Assembly: GCA_042571515.1 (NCBI GenBank)
Contig: JBHPHX010000002.1
Span: 31,164 to 95,163, forward strand
Reading direction: 5' to 3'
DNA from: Patescibacteria group bacterium
Lineage (GTDB): Bacteria; Patescibacteriota; WWE3; UBA101185; UBA10185
DNA: 64,000 nucleotides
How positions within the stretch are numbered: the first letter of the stretch is position 1; each line of letters begins with the position of its first letter. Below the pieces are notes generated by a model that saw only the letters and a program-made list of their open reading frames with translations, was not told where the DNA came from and ran no database searches. Of the stretch, positions 13,657 through 58,078 are shown piece by piece. The translations under genes and the position numbers were made by a program.

Positions 13657-15103
13657 ATACTTTTATTGGCGGACCTGTGCGCAAATAATTATCTTGTTCA
13701 AAAACCAAAACCCCAACATCGAGGTCACTATCCTTGTCTGCTTCGATGTATAAACCTTTGTTACTAAAGGAGGTCATGCCATAATCCACTTTTTTGGCCC
13801 CAGATTTCAATAACAACTTGAGTGACTCATCATCGAAATAAACGGGCATCTGTTGTTCCTCCAACCACTCACTTAAAATAATTCTCGTATCCTTCCTACT
13901 AAGTATGTACGATCCCCTAAGAGTATAAAGCGCTGGGATCACCAAAAACCCCGCCATTAGGATAAATTTAGTCCAGGGAGCCTGTTTCGGCTTCAGTACT
14001 ATTTCCGAGAAAAAACACGCAGAAGCTAAAATTAATGTGGGATAAACCATAAAAAAGTAGTGGGATCTAACCTTTTCAAACCCCGAAATATAATAAATAA
14101 AGGCTAAACTTGGGATCACAAGAAACCAAAGTGCTTTGTTTGCCAAAACCTTTTCTTTGGTAAACTGAGTTAGTAAATACACAAAACAAATAAAAAATAC
14201 TATAAAAAGGGTAAACCCAAAATCATCGGGCAATTTGTTAATTAAGGCGTTGAAAAATTGTCCTATATGCTGGGAAAAATTAACATCCCCCACATTTGTA
14301 AATTGCCACAGCGCCCCGGCCGGACCATCTGTTCGGCTAAATGTTTTAAAATCAAAAAGGGCATAGGGTGTACCAATCAAAAATCCTAAAACTGAGGCAA
14401 CCCCCGAAATAACTAGATTTTGAAGTTTGCTTGTGATTTTTTCTTTAGGTTCAGAAAAAACCCTAAAAAAATGAGCTAGAACAACAGTAAGGGCAATTAA
14501 CGCTCCGTTATATTTTGTAGAAGCGGCAAAGCCTACAAACAATCCTGCTAGCAAATAGTTTTTTAGATCTTTTTTAAATAAAACCAAAACTGAGAAGTAC
14601 ACCGCCCAAGCACAAAAGAAAGCCATGGGAACATCTGTAAGTGTATAGTGTGAGTGGTGGCTGTGATAAGGAGTTATAGCAATAGCTAGGGCTGCTAAAT
14701 ACCCTGCTTTTTTATTAAAAACTTTTTTTCCTGTCAAATATAGTGGAATAGCAGTCAAAGCCCCTAAAGTGGCGGTAAAAACTCTTGTTATGAAATAAAA
14801 AACTAAATCATCATTCCACATCAAAGGAAATATAGGAGAAATGATGGGCCTTATATTCAAAGTAGTCAGTACATCTCTAACACGGGCAAATATCATGTAT
14901 ACGTAGTAGTTTAGGTAAATGTATAGGTGCGGCCAATCAAAATGAGCAGGATTTGGATCAAACCTCACCCCCAAGGCAGTCCTAACCGTGGTCGCTTCGT
15001 CCGGATGAAAGATATAGGGGAATGAATGTTTTAAACCCCAGTATCTTGCAAACAAAGCAAATAAGATTATTAAAAGTAATTTGTGATCAATTTTCTTTAA
15101 CAT
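13643..15103 (-). CDS. GT-C fold glycosyltransferase (GT39/ArnT-like)
   Basis: 486 aa. The first-loop motif FHPDEATTVRTALG is typical of phospholipid-carrier-dependent GT-C enzymes. Polytopic. Confidence 0.7.
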   Translation of the reverse strand: MLKKIDHKLLLIILFALFARYWGLKHSFPYIFHPDEATTVRTALGVRFDPNPAHFDWPHLYIYLNYYVYMIFARVRDVLTTLNIRPIISPIFPLMWNDDLVFYFITRVFTATLGALTAIPLYLTGKKVFNKKAGYLAALAIAITPYHSHHSHYTLTDVPMAFFCAWAVYFSVLVLFKKDLKNYLLAGLFVGFAASTKYNGALIALTVVLAHFFRVFSEPKEKITSKLQNLVISGVASVLGFLIGTPYALFDFKTFSRTDGPAGALWQFTNVGDVNFSQHIGQFFNALINKLPDDFGFTLFIVFFICFVYLLTQFTKEKVLANKALWFLVIPSLAFIYYISGFEKVRSHYFFMVYPTLILASACFFSEIVLKPKQAPWTKFILMAGFLVIPALYTLRGSYILSRKDTRIILSEWLEEQQMPVYFDDESLKLLLKSGAKKVDYGMTSFSNKGLYIEADKDSDLDVGVLVFEQDNYLRTGPPIKVYEIH

Positions 15104-16559
15104 ATATAGTCCAGTAATTCAGCCCATTAATACTAACCATACCATCTTTAGTAAACTGCACTCCACTCTTTAAGACATCTTCTGGAAACTCCTCGTTAAT
15201 AGCTAAAATAACCAAATCATAATTGCTTGTACCATCAACTCTCATGTCAAAAACGCGGGAATTTGGATAAATGGCTTTCATTGGCTTGGTATCAATAAAG
15301 CCCAGTTTAACCTGGCCATAATTATCCAGAATATATTCTCTAAGTTCAAAAATACCTACGCCAAAAGGTTTTTGTCCTACAATATTATTAGCCATATTGG
15401 CTGGAATGGAAGTGTATGTGAAATAATAGGGAAAATTTTTAATTAAAGGGTAAATAACGAATGGCACATACAAAAAAGCCAACAACCAAACATTTTTCTT
15501 GTTAAAAATTTTCCAAAATCCCACAACTGCTAGGGTAGCTAGTAAGGGCCATAATGTAAGCATATATCTGTCCAGTTTCTTACTAGGCCAGGTCATAACT
15601 AGGAAATATCCTATGTAAAACAGCCCCAAATACAAAATAAATCCAGATTTTAATTTCCTATCCTTACTGGGCCTCAAAAGATAGGTTAGGTAGGCTACCA
15701 ACCCAACCCATAAAAAGGGTGAAGTTTTTAAAGCAGTTACAATAGGGTAGAATACCACACCGGGATCTCGGGTATATTCACCGAAAAATATTTGGCTGTG
15801 GCCTTTTCTCACCCCCACCCGTTCCCCCTCAGAAAATATTTCTGAGATAGTATCTACGGGTTTCACCCAGAGTGCAGGAAAAAATACGAAAGTGGTAAGT
15901 AAAAAGGTAAAAATGTACAAAAACATCTTTTTCGGGGATTCTTTTTTAAGAACAGCCATTCCAAGAACATACAAAAACACTCCAAGGCCTATACTTCTTG
16001 TTAAAAACGTAAATGAGGTCAAAATTGCCGACAATAGATAATTTTTGTTAAATGCTGTAATGAGCGCTCCAAAAATCAACAAAGTAAATAACACATCCAT
16101 ATGAAACATTCGCGAATTTCCTACAAAAAAGGGTTCAAATGTAAAAAGGGCAATAATAAACAAACTTTTGTAAAAGTTATTAAAAGAACGGGACAGCCAG
16201 TAGATTAATAGAATACTCAAGAATATTTGAGCAAAAACTAGCATAAATTTGGCAGCAAAATGAAAAAGCGTGAAATTTAAATGCGTGTAAGTATCCATTC
16301 CTGTAACTTGCTTTACAACTTCTATTCCAGTACCCGCAACCCACATCAAGGTTACTCCGGGGTGGTAGTGTTGGAAGGTTTTTTCAAATTGCCTAGTTTT
16401 TAACCCTACCATAAACTGCTGAGAACGATAGTGCCAATTTACAGCATCTGGGTTTACAGAGTCTGTGGCTAGTTCAGGAATTCTCGTAACGAGAAATAGA
16501 ATACAGAATAAAGTAAGGGAAATAACTTTTCTAAAATCAATTTCCTTTGCCCGTTGCAT
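15087..16559 (-). CDS. GT-C fold glycosyltransferase (ArnT/PMT-like), paralog B
   Basis: Blocks FEKTFQHYHPGVTLMW, GVVFYPIVTA and PSKKLDRYMLT match paralog A. Start moved to the ATG at 16559 because GGAGGGG lies 6 nt upstream; the track start at 16574 has no SD. Confidence 0.65.
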   Translation of the reverse strand: MQRAKEIDFRKVISLTLFCILFLVTRIPELATDSVNPDAVNWHYRSQQFMVGLKTRQFEKTFQHYHPGVTLMWVAGTGIEVVKQVTGMDTYTHLNFTLFHFAAKFMLVFAQIFLSILLIYWLSRSFNNFYKSLFIIALFTFEPFFVGNSRMFHMDVLFTLLIFGALITAFNKNYLLSAILTSFTFLTRSIGLGVFLYVLGMAVLKKESPKKMFLYIFTFLLTTFVFFPALWVKPVDTISEIFSEGERVGVRKGHSQIFFGEYTRDPGVVFYPIVTALKTSPFLWVGLVAYLTYLLRPSKDRKLKSGFILYLGLFYIGYFLVMTWPSKKLDRYMLTLWPLLATLAVVGFWKIFNKKNVWLLAFLYVPFVIYPLIKNFPYYFTYTSIPANMANNIVGQKPFGVGIFELREYILDNYGQVKLGFIDTKPMKAIYPNSRVFDMRVDGTSNYDLVILAINEEFPEDVLKSGVQFTKDGMVSINGLNYWTIYVKEN

Positions 16560-17422
16560 ATAGCACCCCTCCAATTAAACTTGTACCTAGCCTAAACAAA
16601 TGATACAAAACAGATGCACTCAGGCTGACCGGACCAGCAACTCCTACCGTAAGAAAAAACTGCATGTAAAGGGCGTCTTGGACGCCAACACCATTTAGAG
16701 AGGGTATAAAAAATCCTGCCAAAGTAATAATGGGGAAAATAAATAGAGAAAAGGCGATGGGTAATTTAACACCAATGGCCAAAAAAACCACATACTGGGT
16801 GGCAATGGCTATAAACTGTATAATTAACGACGTTATAAAGGACCAGGCCAAAACTTTATTTTGACTTTTGTACAAAATTAACGATTCATAAATTTCCTGT
16901 AATTTTTTAAATTTATTTCCTAGAAGTTTTAGGGTCTTAAGTCCAATAAAAAAGGCAATCCAGAATCCCACAAAAATCAGAATCCCCCACCAGCCCATAA
17001 ACTTAAAAAGGGCAGCAATGGATATCATGCCAAGAGCAATAACACCGGTGAATCTTTCCATGAAGGTTGCAGCAAAGGCATCCACAGTGTTACTTATTTT
17101 TCTTCCCAAGCCGATAGACTTTGTATACATCTCCACCGACGCTTGTTGGCATGAAATTATTAAAAAAGGCCCCAATAAAATACAAGGAAGTTAGGTACGG
17201 AACTGTCACATGTTCTGAGTTTTTATGAATTAATAATGCCTTCCATCTAAAAGAACCTACAATATAGTTTAACGCTATTAAAATAAAAATGAACGGTACG
17301 TATCTCAAATCCAGTAACTTAATATTTTCCACCAGCATTGGTTTATCCACACGCCATAAAATAATGCCAAGTAAAACAGAGCTGACAACAATTTTAGTAA
17401 TTAATTGGAGGTTTTTCTTCAT
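16537..17422 (-). pseudogene. UPF0104 / lysyl-PG-synthase-TM-like (flippase-like) membrane protein, interrupted by a frameshift
   Basis: Two overlapping ORFs (17090..17422 and 16537..17175) join into one protein: ...TSVGGDVYKVYRLGKK | ISNTVDAFAATFMERF.... The frame change maps to an A5 run on the coding strand (plus-strand T5 at 17097..17101). Confidence 0.6.
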
Positions 17423-18873
17423 TTCTTCCTTTTAACCATTGATAATACTAATCTAACGTCTTCCATAGAAACGAGTTTTGCAAGTACGGCAGTCCAAGCG
17501 TAGAGTGCACTTAGAACAATGTAACTTCCAATTTTCAGGGGCAAAATTCCGTTTGTACATGACAAGCTAATAGCTACTGCCTGAACAAAAACCAAAACGT
17601 GTGGATATTTGAAAAAGGCCAGGTTCAACCTGTCTTTTATAATATATACAAAAAATACAAAGCTCAGCAGTCCGCCAAAAAGCATTCCGTAGGCCATGGA
17701 ATCTAAAGGAGAAAAAAAAGATTTACCAACAAAATATATGCTTATTGTGGAAACTAACAAAAGTATAAAGCCAAAAATCATTTCCAATTTTAGCTTTGCC
17801 GGGATAATCACACTTGATTTTACAATATTGATTAAGGAGAAAAAAACAAAAGCAAATACTAGCGGCATCAAAAGGTGGTATGCACCAGCATATTTATCAC
17901 CACCTACCAAGATCGAAATTAATTCCGGGGCCCAAAAAGTGGCAGAAAAAGCAATAAAAACTATAAATGAAAATATTTTATTGAAGTTTCGCATAAAGGC
18001 TTGGTTAAAGTTTTTACGATCGTGAACATATTTTTCCGAAAAAACGGGCAAATTTACGTCTGTTATTGAGTCTGAGACGTGAATAAGTTTTTTACCATAT
18101 AACATGGCAAAAGTGTACAAACCAAGCATGTTTGCATCTCCCAGTAAACCAATCAGGTTCGGACCGGATTTTTCCCAATATTTGAGCAAGATTTTAACTA
18201 TATAAATAGACATTCCCAAAGAAAATAGTTCTTTGAAAATAATTTTGAATTCATTCCTAGTGGGGAAAGTGATTTTTTTGAAATAAGGCCTAAGTGCGAT
18301 AAAAAACAGGCTTAGAGATTTAAGGGATTCATGAATTATAAGAGCGTAAAAAAATCCAACAACTTTGAAATAATAAACAAACAAGATGTAGATTGGAACA
18401 CTAATTGCGGCAATAACGATTTGAAAAGTAAAAAGTTCTTTGAATCTTTTGGTTCCAGCAATCATGGAATTTAACATTGCTTGCATACCCTGAACAATGA
18501 TTACTCCAGCATAGATCTTAAGAGGTAGTAAAATTTCTTGAAACCCGTAAACACTAGCAATCTTGGGAGCAAGCATGTATAGGCCAATTCCTAGGGGGAT
18601 GGTGATACAGTAGCGTATTAAAACTGTGGTTATGAATATTTTTATAACATCTGTACCTTTTTTTGCAGTGGAAATTTCACGGTTTGAGGCACTGGCTAGT
18701 CCTAAGTGTTGGTAAATTCCAAGGGACTCACCCAAAGATACGGCAAGTTGAACAATGCCCCATTCAGGAACGTTCAAAATTCTAAGAATTACAAAGGTTT
18801 GAAGTAACCCTACAGCCATGGCTGAGCTACGCGAAATGAAACTAATAATTTGCCATTTTCCAAGTGTTCCCAT
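17419..18873 (-). CDS. MOP/Wzx-type polysaccharide flippase-like membrane protein
   Basis: ~484 aa, polytopic. Start placed at the ATG 18873 (MGTLGKWQ...); the track begins at a TTG at 18882. TATAAT at 18882..18887 (minus) lies 8 nt upstream of the ATG. Confidence 0.6.
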   Translation of the reverse strand: MGTLGKWQIISFISRSSAMAVGLLQTFVILRILNVPEWGIVQLAVSLGESLGIYQHLGLASASNREISTAKKGTDVIKIFITTVLIRYCITIPLGIGLYMLAPKIASVYGFQEILLPLKIYAGVIIVQGMQAMLNSMIAGTKRFKELFTFQIVIAAISVPIYILFVYYFKVVGFFYALIIHESLKSLSLFFIALRPYFKKITFPTRNEFKIIFKELFSLGMSIYIVKILLKYWEKSGPNLIGLLGDANMLGLYTFAMLYGKKLIHVSDSITDVNLPVFSEKYVHDRKNFNQAFMRNFNKIFSFIVFIAFSATFWAPELISILVGGDKYAGAYHLLMPLVFAFVFFSLINIVKSSVIIPAKLKLEMIFGFILLLVSTISIYFVGKSFFSPLDSMAYGMLFGGLLSFVFFVYIIKDRLNLAFFKYPHVLVFVQAVAISLSCTNGILPLKIGSYIVLSALYAWTAVLAKLVSMEDVRLVLSMVKRKK

Positions 18874-18975
18874 ACCTATCAATTATACTACACACCTTTC
18901 CCCAATCTGCTATAATACAATCCAAATTGAGCAATTGAATCAGGTTTTCAAATAAAATAAAGAGGAGAGAATATA

Positions 18976-19344
18976 GTGAACAGGATAGGAACTATTCCAA
19001 AAGACAAAGTCGAAATTAAGGAAAGCGAAGACCTCGGGATAGCGAAGGCTGCTGCTGCGTTCGCTTTTACTAAACACCTCGAGGCGGGAACAGGGTATAA
19101 GGTGGTTTTTGGAAAGATGGGAAACAATTCCGACTTTTGTACGTTTTTTGCTATACGTAAGGGGGAATCTTGTCCTATTGCAGAAGCTTTCGTCTTTCTA
19201 AAGGACAGACCACCGCGGGGTATAACTAAGTATACTGTCGACGTAAAAAAGGGAGATAATAAATGCAGGTACGCCCTCAAACTCACCGGCCATGACACTT
19301 TTGGTCTTATAGAGGCCAGGAGACGGGGCCGCGGCTGGTCTTAA
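18976..19344 (+). CDS. orphan hypothetical protein (122 aa); alternatively part of a structured RNA
   Basis: GTG start preceded by GAGGAG (18963..18968) with a 7-nt spacer. TATAAT at 18911..18916. A hairpin plus T6 terminator follows at 19360..19398. It is the only credible plus-strand gene in a ~53-kb minus-strand block. The translation alternates helix-like and strand-like segments and ends in RRRGRGWS. Codon choice (many G/C-ending codons, frequent AAG) differs from neighbouring genes. Confidence 0.45.
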   Translation: MNRIGTIPKDKVEIKESEDLGIAKAAAAFAFTKHLEAGTGYKVVFGKMGNNSDFCTFFAIRKGESCPIAEAFVFLKDRPPRGITKYTVDVKKGDNKCRYALKLTGHDTFGLIEARRRGRGWS

Positions 19345-19359
19345 ACTAAAGTGATCCTT

Positions 19360-19398
19360 GCGGGGAGAGTGGAACCTACACCTATCCCCGCATTTTTT
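19360..19398 (+). terminator. intrinsic terminator of the plus-strand island
   Basis: GCGGGGA (19360..19366) pairs with TCCCCGC (19385..19391). An inner GTG/CAC pairing is possible. TTTTTT follows at 19393..19398, and this T-run overlaps the stop codon of the convergent DUF2079 gene. Confidence 0.6.
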
Positions 19399-21508
19399 AT
19401 TCCACAATCACATCCCCAAGATAAATACTCCTCGTTCTAGATTTATTATCCATCCCCACAAAAACCATATACTCTCCCGCGTCCACAAACTCAGGCAAAA
19501 CAAATTCCACATTCTCAATATAAAACCTACTTTTCTCCCAGTCCTCTGGGCGTGTAATAGCATGGGAAGGAAGATTTGCCATTTGATAAATTTCCCCAGT
19601 TTCTTTATGCACAAAAGACGTGAACATCAAATACTCCTCAAGGGTAGTATTCTTATTTCCTCCTGCACCAACTCTATCATAAACCACCATAAGTCTACTT
19701 AAATTTCCCCTTTGCACTACTTCCTCCACTTCAAAATCTACTACAGTAACACCCTGAAAAAACTCGTAATTTACCTTTCTATCATATTCAAACCTTTGCT
19801 GCATAGGCAGTAGGGGCTCTTTTTCATGCGGGCCAACTCTTTGAAACACAAAATAATTACCACAACCAAGTTTCAGCGCATAATTTTCATCCTTGATTAA
19901 ATCCTCAATAAAACCCTGCACCATCTCTACGTCAATATCTAAAATAGTCAGAATCTTACGCGCAAAAACATCCACAATCACATAATCAGCCTCATTATAT
20001 AGAGCTGGAAAAATCGCGTAGGTCTCCCTTTGTGCCAAATGTGTTCCTAGGGAATCCGGTCCTGAAACAGACGCCTCTGGCGGTACTAAATTTACAATTT
20101 TTATAGCACACTCTCTATCTTTTCCTTCAAGTTCAGATAATCTAATCACTTCCCCCAACTCTAACTCCTTCCCTATTAACTCTTCTGTTGATTTTGCAAA
20201 GACTCTCTTTTTGATTGCTTGGGATAACCATAAATACACTGGATTATTAAATTTAAAAGATGTATAAACATTTGTTCCCAAAACTAGTGTCGCCAAAATA
20301 ATAATCGCAGTCTTACGCAATTTCCATTTTTTAAACTGTGCACTTAAATACCTTATCCCTAAAATTGTGGAAATAAATAAAATAGGAACAATCATAGAAA
20401 TTCGGTGGTTAGAAATCTCCGCAGTACCAATCCCGCCTGCAGTAGTCAAATAATTTATAGCTAAATCCGGTACTGCCAAAATAAAAAATGAGGGGTAAGC
20501 TAAAGGCAAATAAACTAGAGGCATAAAAGTACGGTTCAGATTATCTAGTTTATCCCCACCAAAAAACACCTCTGCTGTTTTTTTTGGTCTAATAAGCATA
20601 TTTGCGGCAATTTCCAAATAAGAGTCCCCAAATTCGTCATACCTACTGAGAAAATAGTTTGGTAAAGCTACATCCCTTGCAACAGAATCGTCTAGTTTAA
20701 TTGATTGTACAAATTTTTGATACCCCTCGACCCTGTAATGTGCATTAAGTGGGATAATCACGAAAAAAGCCATAAAAAACCACAGCGCGCTAATTCCAAC
20801 AACCCACAAACCCAACCTACCAATTTTAGTTTTAAAAAGCTCCGAAAAACTCTTAGCCTCGTAATTTCTAAATAGAAAAATAAAAATCCCACAAAAAAAT
20901 ATATACAAAGGGAGTTGCTCCTTGCCCATCATAGTAAGAACAGTCAAAACCCAAAATGCAGTAATTCCTCCTTTAGTAAAATTTCTATCTTTGTACATCT
21001 TCTCAAACACATAAAAAGCGCCTAGAAAAAATGGAATTACTGCTGTAACACCATGAAATCCGGTCCAAGCAATTAAAAATCCAATCGCAGGATATACTAA
21101 ATAAGAAATCCCCAATAAAAAGGCTGCAAAACGGGATTTTAGGTGCAACTCAGCAATTTTATAAATCAAAATGGAAGAGAAAATAACTAGAATAAGCTGG
21201 GAATAAACTAAAGTAAGTGCATGTGGAAAAACTGCGAACAAAGGCACAAACAGATACAAAATTGGGTCCACATGGCTCATCGCCCATCTGGGTAAATTAG
21301 TTCCAAAATAATCTGTAAGCATTAAGCCATTGCCTTGAGTTACGTTCCATACCATTTGAGTCATATTTCCAAGATCAAATTTTCCATAGTCAAAATTATG
21401 GTATCTAAAGGTATTTATTCGAATATTTACAAGTAAAATCAAAAGGGAATATAAACCCAAACAAATCAACCAAAAATTTTTCCTGATAATTTTTATCATT
21501 TTAGTCAA
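19397..21508 (-). CDS. DUF2079 family polytopic membrane protein with C-terminal soluble domain
   Basis: The N-terminus (FRYHNFDYGKFDLGNMTQMVWNVTQGNG...WAMSHVDPILYLF) is the DUF2079 signature as I remember it. Later motif: THLAQRETYAIFP...ADYVIVD. Confidence 0.8.
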   Translation of the reverse strand: MTKMIKIIRKNFWLICLGLYSLLILLVNIRINTFRYHNFDYGKFDLGNMTQMVWNVTQGNGLMLTDYFGTNLPRWAMSHVDPILYLFVPLFAVFPHALTLVYSQLILVIFSSILIYKIAELHLKSRFAAFLLGISYLVYPAIGFLIAWTGFHGVTAVIPFFLGAFYVFEKMYKDRNFTKGGITAFWVLTVLTMMGKEQLPLYIFFCGIFIFLFRNYEAKSFSELFKTKIGRLGLWVVGISALWFFMAFFVIIPLNAHYRVEGYQKFVQSIKLDDSVARDVALPNYFLSRYDEFGDSYLEIAANMLIRPKKTAEVFFGGDKLDNLNRTFMPLVYLPLAYPSFFILAVPDLAINYLTTAGGIGTAEISNHRISMIVPILFISTILGIRYLSAQFKKWKLRKTAIIILATLVLGTNVYTSFKFNNPVYLWLSQAIKKRVFAKSTEELIGKELELGEVIRLSELEGKDRECAIKIVNLVPPEASVSGPDSLGTHLAQRETYAIFPALYNEADYVIVDVFARKILTILDIDVEMVQGFIEDLIKDENYALKLGCGNYFVFQRVGPHEKEPLLPMQQRFEYDRKVNYEFFQGVTVVDFEVEEVVQRGNLSRLMVVYDRVGAGGNKNTTLEEYLMFTSFVHKETGEIYQMANLPSHAITRPEDWEKSRFYIENVEFVLPEFVDAGEYMVFVGMDNKSRTRSIYLGDVIVE

Positions 21509-22205
21509 AAAACCTAAATCTAATTAAAGTAGTGACAGCGGAAACACCATCTCTCCAAGTTATTTTTTTACCTTCACTGTGTGTTCTCCCTTTGTATGAG
21601 ATTGGCACCTCCTTAATTCTCATTCCGCTCTTGAGAATTTTAGCTGTAATTTCCGGTTCAAAATTAAATCTTGGGGATTTTATATCTATTTTTCTGACAA
21701 ATTCACCGGGCAAAAGTTTGTAACAGGTTTCCATATCCGTGAGCATTACGCCGAAAAATACATTTGTTATTAAAGTTAAAAGTTTATTTCCAAAATAATG
21801 CAGATTTGACATATCTTCATAATTTCCGGAAAATCTTGAACCATAAACCACATCAACATCCTCCTCCTCCAAAGTTCTTAGTAATTTTTTATATTCTTCC
21901 GGCTCATACTCCAAATCCGCATCTTGTACTATTACATGGTCCCCCGTAGTATGTTTAAAGCCTTCTTTTAAGGTAAATCCCTTGCCTGTGTTTTTATCTT
22001 TAAAAAAAATCTTGAGATCTTTATCCTCCTTCTGAAGTTTCTCCAAAATATCCCGCGTACCGTCAGTAGACATGTCGTCTACCAAAACATACTCTTTCTT
22101 TATACCGTCTAGCTTTACTGCTTTGACTTTTTTCAATAGCTTTCTAAAAGTATCCCTCTCGTTATAAATTGGTATTACTATTGATAGTTTTTGGACCTTT
22201 TTCAT
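21501..22205 (-). CDS. GT2 polyprenyl-phosphate sugar synthase-like glycosyltransferase
   Basis: LSIVIPIYNERDTF, VIVQDADLEYEPEE, VVYGSR. 8-nt overlap with the downstream DUF2079 gene. Confidence 0.85.
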   Translation of the reverse strand: MKKVQKLSIVIPIYNERDTFRKLLKKVKAVKLDGIKKEYVLVDDMSTDGTRDILEKLQKEDKDLKIFFKDKNTGKGFTLKEGFKHTTGDHVIVQDADLEYEPEEYKKLLRTLEEEDVDVVYGSRFSGNYEDMSNLHYFGNKLLTLITNVFFGVMLTDMETCYKLLPGEFVRKIDIKSPRFNFEPEITAKILKSGMRIKEVPISYKGRTHSEGKKITWRDGVSAVTTLIRFRFFD

Positions 22206-30703: not shown

Positions 30704-31602
30704 AAAATAGCTCCAGGCAAAACAGAAATGAGTACGCTACCTAATACTACAATGAGAAACAGCAAGTGGGCTAGGGTATGTCCAGAAACTTTAAGAATTT
30801 TGTGTTTCTTTGAGTACCAAAGGTCCAAGGAGAATAATGTTACCAAAAACCCGCCAAATAAGAATGTTGTCGACCTAGAGACTTGTCTAACATCCAGAAC
30901 TGGGCTTGTAACAACGGGCTCTCCTACCGTTTCTATTTGTACACTATTTACTTCTGGAAAAGCTTCTTCCACCACAGGGACTTCTGCCAAATAGGCTGGG
31001 CTCCTACCTTTACCAAACATTTGTACTACTAGGGTTGTTTCATAACCATCTAAAACCCCATTCACTACAGCAAATCCAATTTCTTCATAATTTGGGTTCA
31101 TGAGGTTCTCTCTATGGGTTGGGGATTGAACCCATGCTTCTACCACACTTTTTGAGTTAGAAAAGTTTTTGGCTAGGTTTTCCCCAGCGTAGATGTAGTC
31201 ATAACCAGAAGATAAGATAAAATCCCAAGGTTCGGTACCATCAGGGGAAACATGAGCCCAATAATTATTTTCAAACATGTGTTTAGCCTTTTGAGCAGCG
31301 GCTTTGGAAAGAGTGGGGTTAAATTCCAAGGTTCCAAGTCCGGCCTCTTCTCTTTCTTTATTGGTGTATCTTAGTAAATCGGAAGTACTAATATTTGATG
31401 CGTAACCTAATATTCCTGGGAGATACCTTGGTACAAGCCTAAAAAACCCAAGAAGAACTACAAGCAGGAGTACGTAGCCCAAAAGAGCGTTTAGAGACAA
31501 TAACCTAGCCCGTTTTCTTTGCTCGGGGTGAGGTAAAAAATGATATATGAAACGATATTTTTTTATTGCTTCTACTTCTCTGTTTGGCGAGTATGCTTGC
31601 AT
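30700..31602 (-). CDS. membrane-anchored CAP/SCP (PR-1-like) domain protein
   Basis: YWAHVSPDG...YAGENLA...VEAWVQSPTHRENLMNPNYEEIGFAV is a CAP-domain signature. Hydrophobic segments flank it on both sides. Confidence 0.7.
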   Translation of the reverse strand: MQAYSPNREVEAIKKYRFIYHFLPHPEQRKRARLLSLNALLGYVLLLVVLLGFFRLVPRYLPGILGYASNISTSDLLRYTNKEREEAGLGTLEFNPTLSKAAAQKAKHMFENNYWAHVSPDGTEPWDFILSSGYDYIYAGENLAKNFSNSKSVVEAWVQSPTHRENLMNPNYEEIGFAVVNGVLDGYETTLVVQMFGKGRSPAYLAEVPVVEEAFPEVNSVQIETVGEPVVTSPVLDVRQVSRSTTFLFGGFLVTLFSLDLWYSKKHKILKVSGHTLAHLLFLIVVLGSVLISVLPGAIL

Positions 31603-57322: not shown

Positions 57323-58078
57323 ATGGGTATAAAAAACGAAGTTAAGGAATTGGTAAAGAAACTGGATGGAAATATTGGTGTATATGTTAAATTTCTAAAT
57401 TCTGGAGAAACCATTGAAATAAACGCGGACTTGCAGTTCCAAGCAGCAAGCATAATAAAAATACCAATACTTACAGAGTTTTTCAGACAAGTTGAAGAGG
57501 GGGATCTCAAACTGAACCGGAAGATAAAAATAAAAGAAGAAAATTTAGTTAAGGGTTCTGGGATAGTACACTTGTTGGACAAAAATAATGAATACACACT
57601 TGAAGATCTTGCAAAACTCGCGGTAATTCTTTCTGATAATGCCTCCACAAACGAAATCGTGGATTTAATCGGACCAGAGAATGTGAAAAAACATATTGAG
57701 AAATTGGGACTGGAAAAAACAACCTTTAAACACAAGATGATGATAAAAGCAAACGGGGGCCCTAACTTAACAACCCCAAAAGAAATCTCCATACTTTTGG
57801 AAAAGCTGTACAATAACGAATTAGCTTATTCTGAGAAGATATTAGACATAATGACTGAGTCAAAACTTCGACACGGAATACCCTCGCTCATCCCAAACGA
57901 AATAAAAATCTCTCATAAAACAGGTAATCTGCAAAATACGGTCCATAATGTGGCAGTAATTTACGCAAAAAACCCTTTTATAATGTCTTTTCTTTCCAAT
58001 AATCAAAAGGACAAACGTTTTACAAACAAAGTAATGGCTGAATGTGCAAAATTATGTTTCGCGTATGCTAATAAATAA
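57323..58078 (+). CDS. class A beta-lactamase-like serine hydrolase
   Basis: The three class A boxes are present: SIIK (SxxK), SDN (LSDNAST) and KTG (HKTGN). No signal peptide is evident. The omega-loop region lacks an obvious Glu166 equivalent. Confidence 0.75.
   Translation: MGIKNEVKELVKKLDGNIGVYVKFLNSGETIEINADLQFQAASIIKIPILTEFFRQVEEGDLKLNRKIKIKEENLVKGSGIVHLLDKNNEYTLEDLAKLAVILSDNASTNEIVDLIGPENVKKHIEKLGLEKTTFKHKMMIKANGGPNLTTPKEISILLEKLYNNELAYSEKILDIMTESKLRHGIPSLIPNEIKISHKTGNLQNTVHNVAVIYAKNPFIMSFLSNNQKDKRFTNKVMAECAKLCFAYANK

Follow-up and report, generated by a model that had tools for sequence, protein, structure and literature searches.

A lineage-specific, G+C-rich insertion with a candidate orphan gene in a conserved WWE3 glycosylation block

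ORFan genes, also annotated as those of lineage-specific 'hypothetical proteins', that were acquired as single-gene inserts share a number of features, such as the lack of any homologue, atypical G+C content and codon use, expression signals of their own (promoter-like site, Shine-Dalgarno sequence, terminator), and a position in an intergenic spacer between flanking genes that have remained intact. Long G+C-rich intergenic regions in A+T-rich genomes are, on the other hand, the classic signature used in searches for structured RNAs (GC/IGR-length screens). The DNA analysed here, a 64-kb stretch from an uncultivated WWE3 (Patescibacteria) bacterium referred to as the window, contains a 514-nt gap in a glycosylation gene block, hereafter the island, which, like the large structured bacterial RNAs, is long, intergenic and richer in G+C than the genome. 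An initial annotation, made from the sequence alone, offered two readings of it, either an orphan gene of foreign origin that had entered a glycosylation operon or a ~450-nt structured RNA.

The analysis described below places the island in an ordinary ORFan, or 'hypothetical protein', situation. The points worth noting against other members of that class are the opposite-strand orientation of the gene (ORF122) within an otherwise co-directional 30-kb block and the fact that the whole lineage is a singleton; nothing else sets it apart. With some reserve, we favour a horizontally acquired, monocistronic orphan protein gene as the explanation. The conspicuous G+C-rich gap would then be a dispensable, lineage-specific orphan cassette rather than a new class of RNA, a result that matters little beyond annotation.

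The DUF2079/flippase junction in the window and in related loci

Most of the long ORFs in the window (36 of 40) lie on the minus strand. A minus-strand gene block extends from 787 to 30442, in which the genes mostly abut or overlap; its largest gap, of 514 nt, separates the DUF2079 gene from the flippase-like gene. The neighbouring genes are as follows.

17419–18882, minus strand: flippase-like gene (Polysacc_synt_3), probable ATG at 18873
19397–21508, minus strand: DUF2079 membrane-protein gene
21501–22205, minus-strand block: GT2 glycosyltransferase gene
Near the island, minus-strand block: LPG_synthase_TM gene and PMT_2-type glycosyltransferase genes

Direct reading of the sequence agreed with the initial annotation on the size of the gap and on its position between two minus-strand genes. 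Both flanking genes are full-length, the C-terminus of the DUF2079 protein ('...RTRSIYLGDVIVE*') and the N-terminus of the flippase ('MGTLGKWQ...') being kept, and the insert is therefore exactly intergenic.

A total of 106 loci encoding relatives of the DUF2079 protein were retrieved, of which 75 hold both flanking genes in co-orientation. None of these 75 syntenic loci contains the island, and nothing like ORF122 or the island DNA was found in the 106 related loci. The distance from the DUF2079 stop codon to the flippase ATG is below 8 nt in 56 of the 75 and 8–62 nt in a further 14. It reaches 849 nt in three loci (L008, L045 and L046), where an alpha/beta hydrolase gene is present on the operon strand, and 3.4 kb in two others (L030 and L074), which carry an M16 peptidase and an ABC transporter. 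These inserts, which represent two other lineages, occupy the same DUF2079/flippase junction as the island, with gene contents unrelated to ORF122. Genes appear to have been gained repeatedly at this junction. In the closest sequenced relative, whose DUF2079 protein is 68% identical, the island is lacking and only 6 nt separate the stop codon from the flippase ATG. Judged from these loci, the island is an insertion specific to an otherwise unsampled lineage. Absence of the region from close relatives had been put forward beforehand as a sign of neutral insertion, and its absence from 75/75 loci in which the operon is intact indicates that the insertion is dispensable.

The island is also foreign in composition, as the initial annotation had suspected from base counts. 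It is the most G+C-rich stretch of the window. The G+C content of ORF122 is 0.47, compared to 0.37 for the window, a value within the highest 0.2% of 366-nt segments. Its GC3 amounts to 0.46, whereas the 40 long ORFs average 0.32.

Two further observations were made in the neighbourhood. The LPG_synthase_TM (PF03706) gene beside the flippase gene, at 16537–17422 on the minus strand, is present as two overlapping ORFs in different frames, matching profile positions 2–101 and 107–302, respectively; in 36/36 relatives having both halves they form a single frame. The frame switch was placed at an A-run at ~17100–17112; an error in sequencing, a pseudogene and a frameshift are the candidate explanations of the split. 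In the same glycosylation block, a minus-strand ORF at 15087–16574 encodes a 495-aa multi-pass membrane protein to which no Pfam family could be assigned at E ≤0.001.

ORF122, its coding evidence and its bracketing signals

The following features were read in the island.

18889–18916, plus strand: ORF122 promoter-like site, TACACA, 16-nt spacer, TGcTATAAT (extended −10)
18917–18975, plus strand: predicted ORF122 5′ UTR, ~53 nt, A+T-rich
18962–18967, plus strand: Shine-Dalgarno sequence GAGGAG, 8 nt before GTG 18976
18976–19344, plus strand: ORF122, 122 codons, GTG start
18948–19298, minus strand: antisense ORF, 116 aa
19359–19398, plus strand: intrinsic terminator of ORF122, hairpin 19359–19392 and T6 19393–19398

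The 122-aa plus-strand ORF starting at GTG 18976 was already proposed in the initial annotation, together with the presence of long ORFs on both strands, and both statements were borne out, the second by the 116-aa antisense ORF. ORF122 is listed in NCBI as hypothetical protein ACFL13_00835. Its predicted product is a basic, soluble protein of 13.5 kDa (pI 9.7, GRAVY −0.37), for which neither a signal peptide nor an N-terminal hydrophobic segment was predicted. When the island was shuffled 5000 times, an internal ORF as long as ORF122 or longer arose 25 times (0.5%, p ~0.005), and no shuffle had ORFs of 110 codons or more on the two strands at once. A host-independent test of codon positions (purine, G1 and periodicity) with a stop-free null gave a first-position purine fraction of 0.71 against 0.60 ± 0.04 (p 0.007), a G1 of 0.38 (p 0.026) and a 3-periodicity chi-square p of 0.016; the p values thus range from about 0.007 to 0.03, and the direction is gene-like. 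ORF122 is, in sum, an open frame longer than expected by chance with codon-position periodicity.

Comparison with host codon usage gave a different picture. When a stop-including background is used, the in-frame score of ORF122 lies at the 6th percentile of real gene chunks and above that of 610/610 off-frame chunks of real genes. In the stricter host-codon test (stop-free and composition-corrected), 32% of spurious ORFs score as high as or higher than ORF122. Over the tests, its host-codon score falls at the 2nd–6th percentile of host gene chunks, so that its codon usage is not host-like. This poor score fits a foreign gene and is also compatible with non-coding DNA. Taken together, ORF length, first-position purines and the bracketing signals moderately support the coding status of ORF122. 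The antisense ORF displays the mirror image of the sense frame, with a first-position purine fraction of 0.47, a G1 of 0.22 and 74% pyrimidine at position 2. It has no homologues and no family matches in Pfam, PHROGs, NCBIfam or PADLOC, and was judged to be a shadow, or by-product, of the sense frame and not a gene.

The promoter-like site upstream of ORF122 matches 10/12 consensus positions, with a TG at 18908–18909 preceding the −10 box; the assignment is one of consensus match. The predicted 5′ UTR is unstructured (fold z +0.95), as expected of an accessible ribosome-binding site, and the 93-nt promoter region (18883–18975) has a host-like G+C content of 0.30. The window has only four copies of the motif GAGGAG on its plus strand. 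Downstream, the terminator begins 14 nt after the ORF122 stop codon, which ends at 19344, and consists of a G+C-rich 8-bp stem with an inner 3-bp helix, followed by a T-run that reaches into the complement of the stop codon of DUF2079 (19397–19399). The hairpin has a dG of −19.1 kcal/mol (z −4.3), none of 200 shuffles folds as well, and no other combination of hairpin and T-run in the entire 64 kb is as strong. A stable G+C-rich hairpin with a T-run, 3′ of a stop codon, is what a Rho-independent terminator would present. Of the signals named in the initial annotation, the plus-strand TATAAT at 18911–18916 and the strong hairpin with its T6 terminator were thus confirmed, and the GAGGAG motif and the GTG start codon stand with a corrected spacing of 8 nt instead of 7 nt.

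Searches for relatives of the ORF122 product were carried out in several collections. ORF122 retrieved only itself from 5.8 billion clustered proteins in a word-indexed search. An exhaustive phmmer search of 1.84 billion representative proteins returned three matches with E values of 1e-5 to 3e-4, all of them long proteins of tandem Fn3-like repeats. In these surface proteins (P0002–P0004; Pfam fn3 / Fn3_Dep-1_3rd), a repeat segment of ~40 residues resembles residues 17–56 of ORF122 with 35–41% identity. However, no repeat scores above 12.5 bits, single E values are 1e4 or worse, the ORF122 segment is predicted to be a helix rather than strands, and the domain boundaries do not coincide. Per-repeat scoring revealed the significance to be a sum over near-identical, non-independent repeats, and kinship with Fn3-like proteins was rejected; ORF122 gave no Pfam match, to a fibronectin type III-like domain or otherwise, at E ≤1. 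No match was obtained in Pfam, PHROGs, NCBIfam or PADLOC, the best match among PDB sequences (2iay_A, E 1.1) is not significant, and nothing was found in metagenome and viral contigs (tblastn-confirmed) or in phage and plasmid records (tblastn). PADLOC, PHROG and the phage and plasmid records thus gave no indication of an anti-phage defence gene or a phage-derived gene.

Structural modelling with AlphaFold from the single sequence of ORF122 produced a helix (residues 19–35) and six strands with a pLDDT of 50 and a pTM of 0.42. The model of the antisense ORF, used as a control, is mostly coil with a pLDDT of 57 and a pTM of 0.26. Because the control reaches a similar pLDDT, the confidence of the ORF122 model does not discriminate, and the model carries no evidential weight. 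In a Foldseek search of the ORF122 model against PDB, the best match had an E value of 0.23 and a TM of about 0.2.

Combined with the comparative and compositional data, these signals describe a lineage-specific insert of ~0.5 kb, foreign in composition, in the short DUF2079/flippase spacer of a conserved WWE3 glycosylation block. On the opposite strand it would form a complete cassette for a single gene, with a putative sigma-70-type promoter carrying an extended −10, an unstructured leader of ~53 nt, a strong Shine-Dalgarno sequence and the 122-codon ORF, and would end in the strong predicted terminator adjoining the stop codon of DUF2079. What the ORF encodes is most likely a genuine protein, small, basic and cytoplasmic, in which a single helix is combined with several strands; it is an ORFan whose role is probably accessory and unrelated to the chemistry of glycosylation. 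The data establish the insertion and its uniqueness, its foreign composition, the presence of the sequence signals and the lack of a signal of RNA structure; from them we infer that ORF122 is translated and was horizontally acquired, and that the promoters work as read here. The first of the two readings in the initial annotation, a foreign orphan gene in a glycosylation operon, is supported by the absence from 75/75 loci, the foreign composition, the lack of a homologue and the bracketing signals.

A less likely alternative, which deserves to be taken seriously, is that the insert is real and the gene non-functional, the island being decaying foreign DNA whose frame either stayed open by chance or is left over from a gene that once existed; at most, the hairpin would then act as a terminator or an insulator between the operon halves. 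Such an origin is consistent with a singleton that has no homologue in any searched collection, with a host-codon score indistinguishable from that of spurious ORFs and with a structure prediction that is uninformative in view of its antisense control. A frame of 122 codons is nevertheless rare by chance, as seen in the shuffles, its codon-position pattern is gene-like in direction, and every signal from the promoter-like site through the Shine-Dalgarno sequence, start codon and stop codon to the terminator is intact and properly spaced, which decay would be unlikely to preserve.

Signs of a mobile element were sought at the borders and within the island. With regard to insertion sequences and MITEs, no terminal inverted repeats were present at the island borders, only a direct repeat of 10/12 identity, no transposase family in Pfam, PHROGs, NCBIfam or PADLOC matched ORF122 or the antisense ORF, and no second copy of the island occurs within the 64-kb window. 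An integron cassette was rejected as well, given that 19345–19420 contains no GTTRRRY / RYYYAAC core sites of an attC on either strand. The 12-nt direct repeat that flanks the island lies at 18869–18880 and 19375–19386 (CCCATACCTATC / CCTACACCTATC), one copy across the flippase start and the other within the terminator loop. It is probably due to chance, with the leftover of a junction duplication as a conceivable alternative.

Assembly artefact and structured RNA

It is very unlikely that the 0.5-kb segment arose artificially during assembly or binning, namely as a chimeric join in a metagenome-assembled contig. The source is indeed a metagenome-assembled genome, the composition of the island is unlike that of its surroundings, and the one-base homopolymer frameshift 1.7 kb away hints at an imperfect consensus quality. 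Against these points, the segment is internal to a 106-kb contig, the genes on either side are complete as far as the stop codon of one and the start codon of the other, the T-run of the terminator merges with the DUF2079 stop codon, and the promoter region is A+T-rich like the host. A short internal chimera with both junctions exactly intergenic would be improbable.

Hardly any credence can be given to the second reading in the initial annotation, in which the island is a ~450-nt structured non-coding RNA on either strand and the ORF is incidental. It draws on the length and G+C-richness of an intergenic region whose genome is A+T-rich, and on several local helices that can be drawn. At gathering thresholds, Rfam gave no match in the whole 64-kb window; at E ≤10, a single match was obtained in 18700–19600, with an E value of 9.4 and 15.4 bits compared to a threshold of 41.2. 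ARAGORN detected no tRNA or tmRNA in the window. The minimum free energy of 18920–19400 is within one standard deviation of that of dinucleotide-preserving shuffles (plus strand, z −1.0; minus strand, z −0.5), and the terminator hairpin is the only significant structure of the island. No homologous region in which compensatory base changes could show was found in the 106 related loci or in the collections searched. The region had been described as full of nested helices; the helices do exist, and they are not unusual, as the three that were named have z values of −1.5, +0.7 and −1.8 and the island folds like its shuffles. One of them, the GCGAA...TTCGC helix, is accounted for by a run of Ala codons (GCG AAG GCT GCT GCT GCG TTC GCT). 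Unlike the large structured bacterial RNAs, the island therefore combines the absence of an Rfam match and of excess stability with a periodic open frame and translation signals, and the folding energy clearly below shuffles that a structured RNA of any kind would display was not observed.

The flippase promoter and leaderless-type starts

A second promoter element, ancestral and outside the insert proper, lies next to the flippase end of the island.

18882–18887, minus strand: TATAAT, −10 box of the flippase gene, 8 nt upstream of the probable ATG at 18873

On the minus strand, the sequence upstream of this ATG reads TAGTATAAT-TGATAGGT-ATG, and the flippase start has no Shine-Dalgarno sequence. 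An exact TATAAT 7–9 nt before the flippase ATG is found in five of the seven distinct relatives with a 23–62-nt spacer (L001, L003, L004, L005 and L024), compared to one of 35 where the genes abut. Since relatives without the island have the same TATAAT box, the flippase promoter is older than the insertion, and the flippase half of the block would already have been transcriptionally autonomous when the island arrived. The initial annotation had suggested that transcription of the operon's downstream half is restarted from this minus-strand TATAAT, a proposal that is supported and that the comparative counts strengthen. With a promoter of its own for the flippase gene, the downstream half of the block would be independent of read-through, and the insertion was probably tolerated because this promoter was already in place. 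Its conservation may also explain why repeated insertions have been tolerated at the DUF2079/flippase junction.

The −10 box of ORF122 (18911–18916) and that of the flippase gene (18887–18882) stand back to back, 23 nt apart, and mutual interference of the two predicted promoters is possible on the basis of this spacing. ORF122 might even be the founder of a family of small, basic nucleic-acid-binding proteins regulating the divergent flippase half, although we regard this as improbable. If it were true, occupancy of one promoter should exclude that of the other, which would give the cassette a regulatory grip on the split operon.

On general grounds of promoter geometry, a −10 box as close to the start codon as that of the flippase gene, together with the missing Shine-Dalgarno sequence, suggests a leaderless or near-leaderless flippase mRNA, and the TATAAT 7–9 nt before the flippase start in turn suggests leaderless-type internal promoters within what appears to be a single long WWE3 operon. 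A search of the literature on leaderless translation in Patescibacteria returned nothing directly relevant. Two further genes in the window, with ATG at 57323 on the plus strand and at 31602 on the minus strand, have a TATAAT 6–9 nt upstream of their start codons, and leaderless-type starts may thus be recurrent in this genome.
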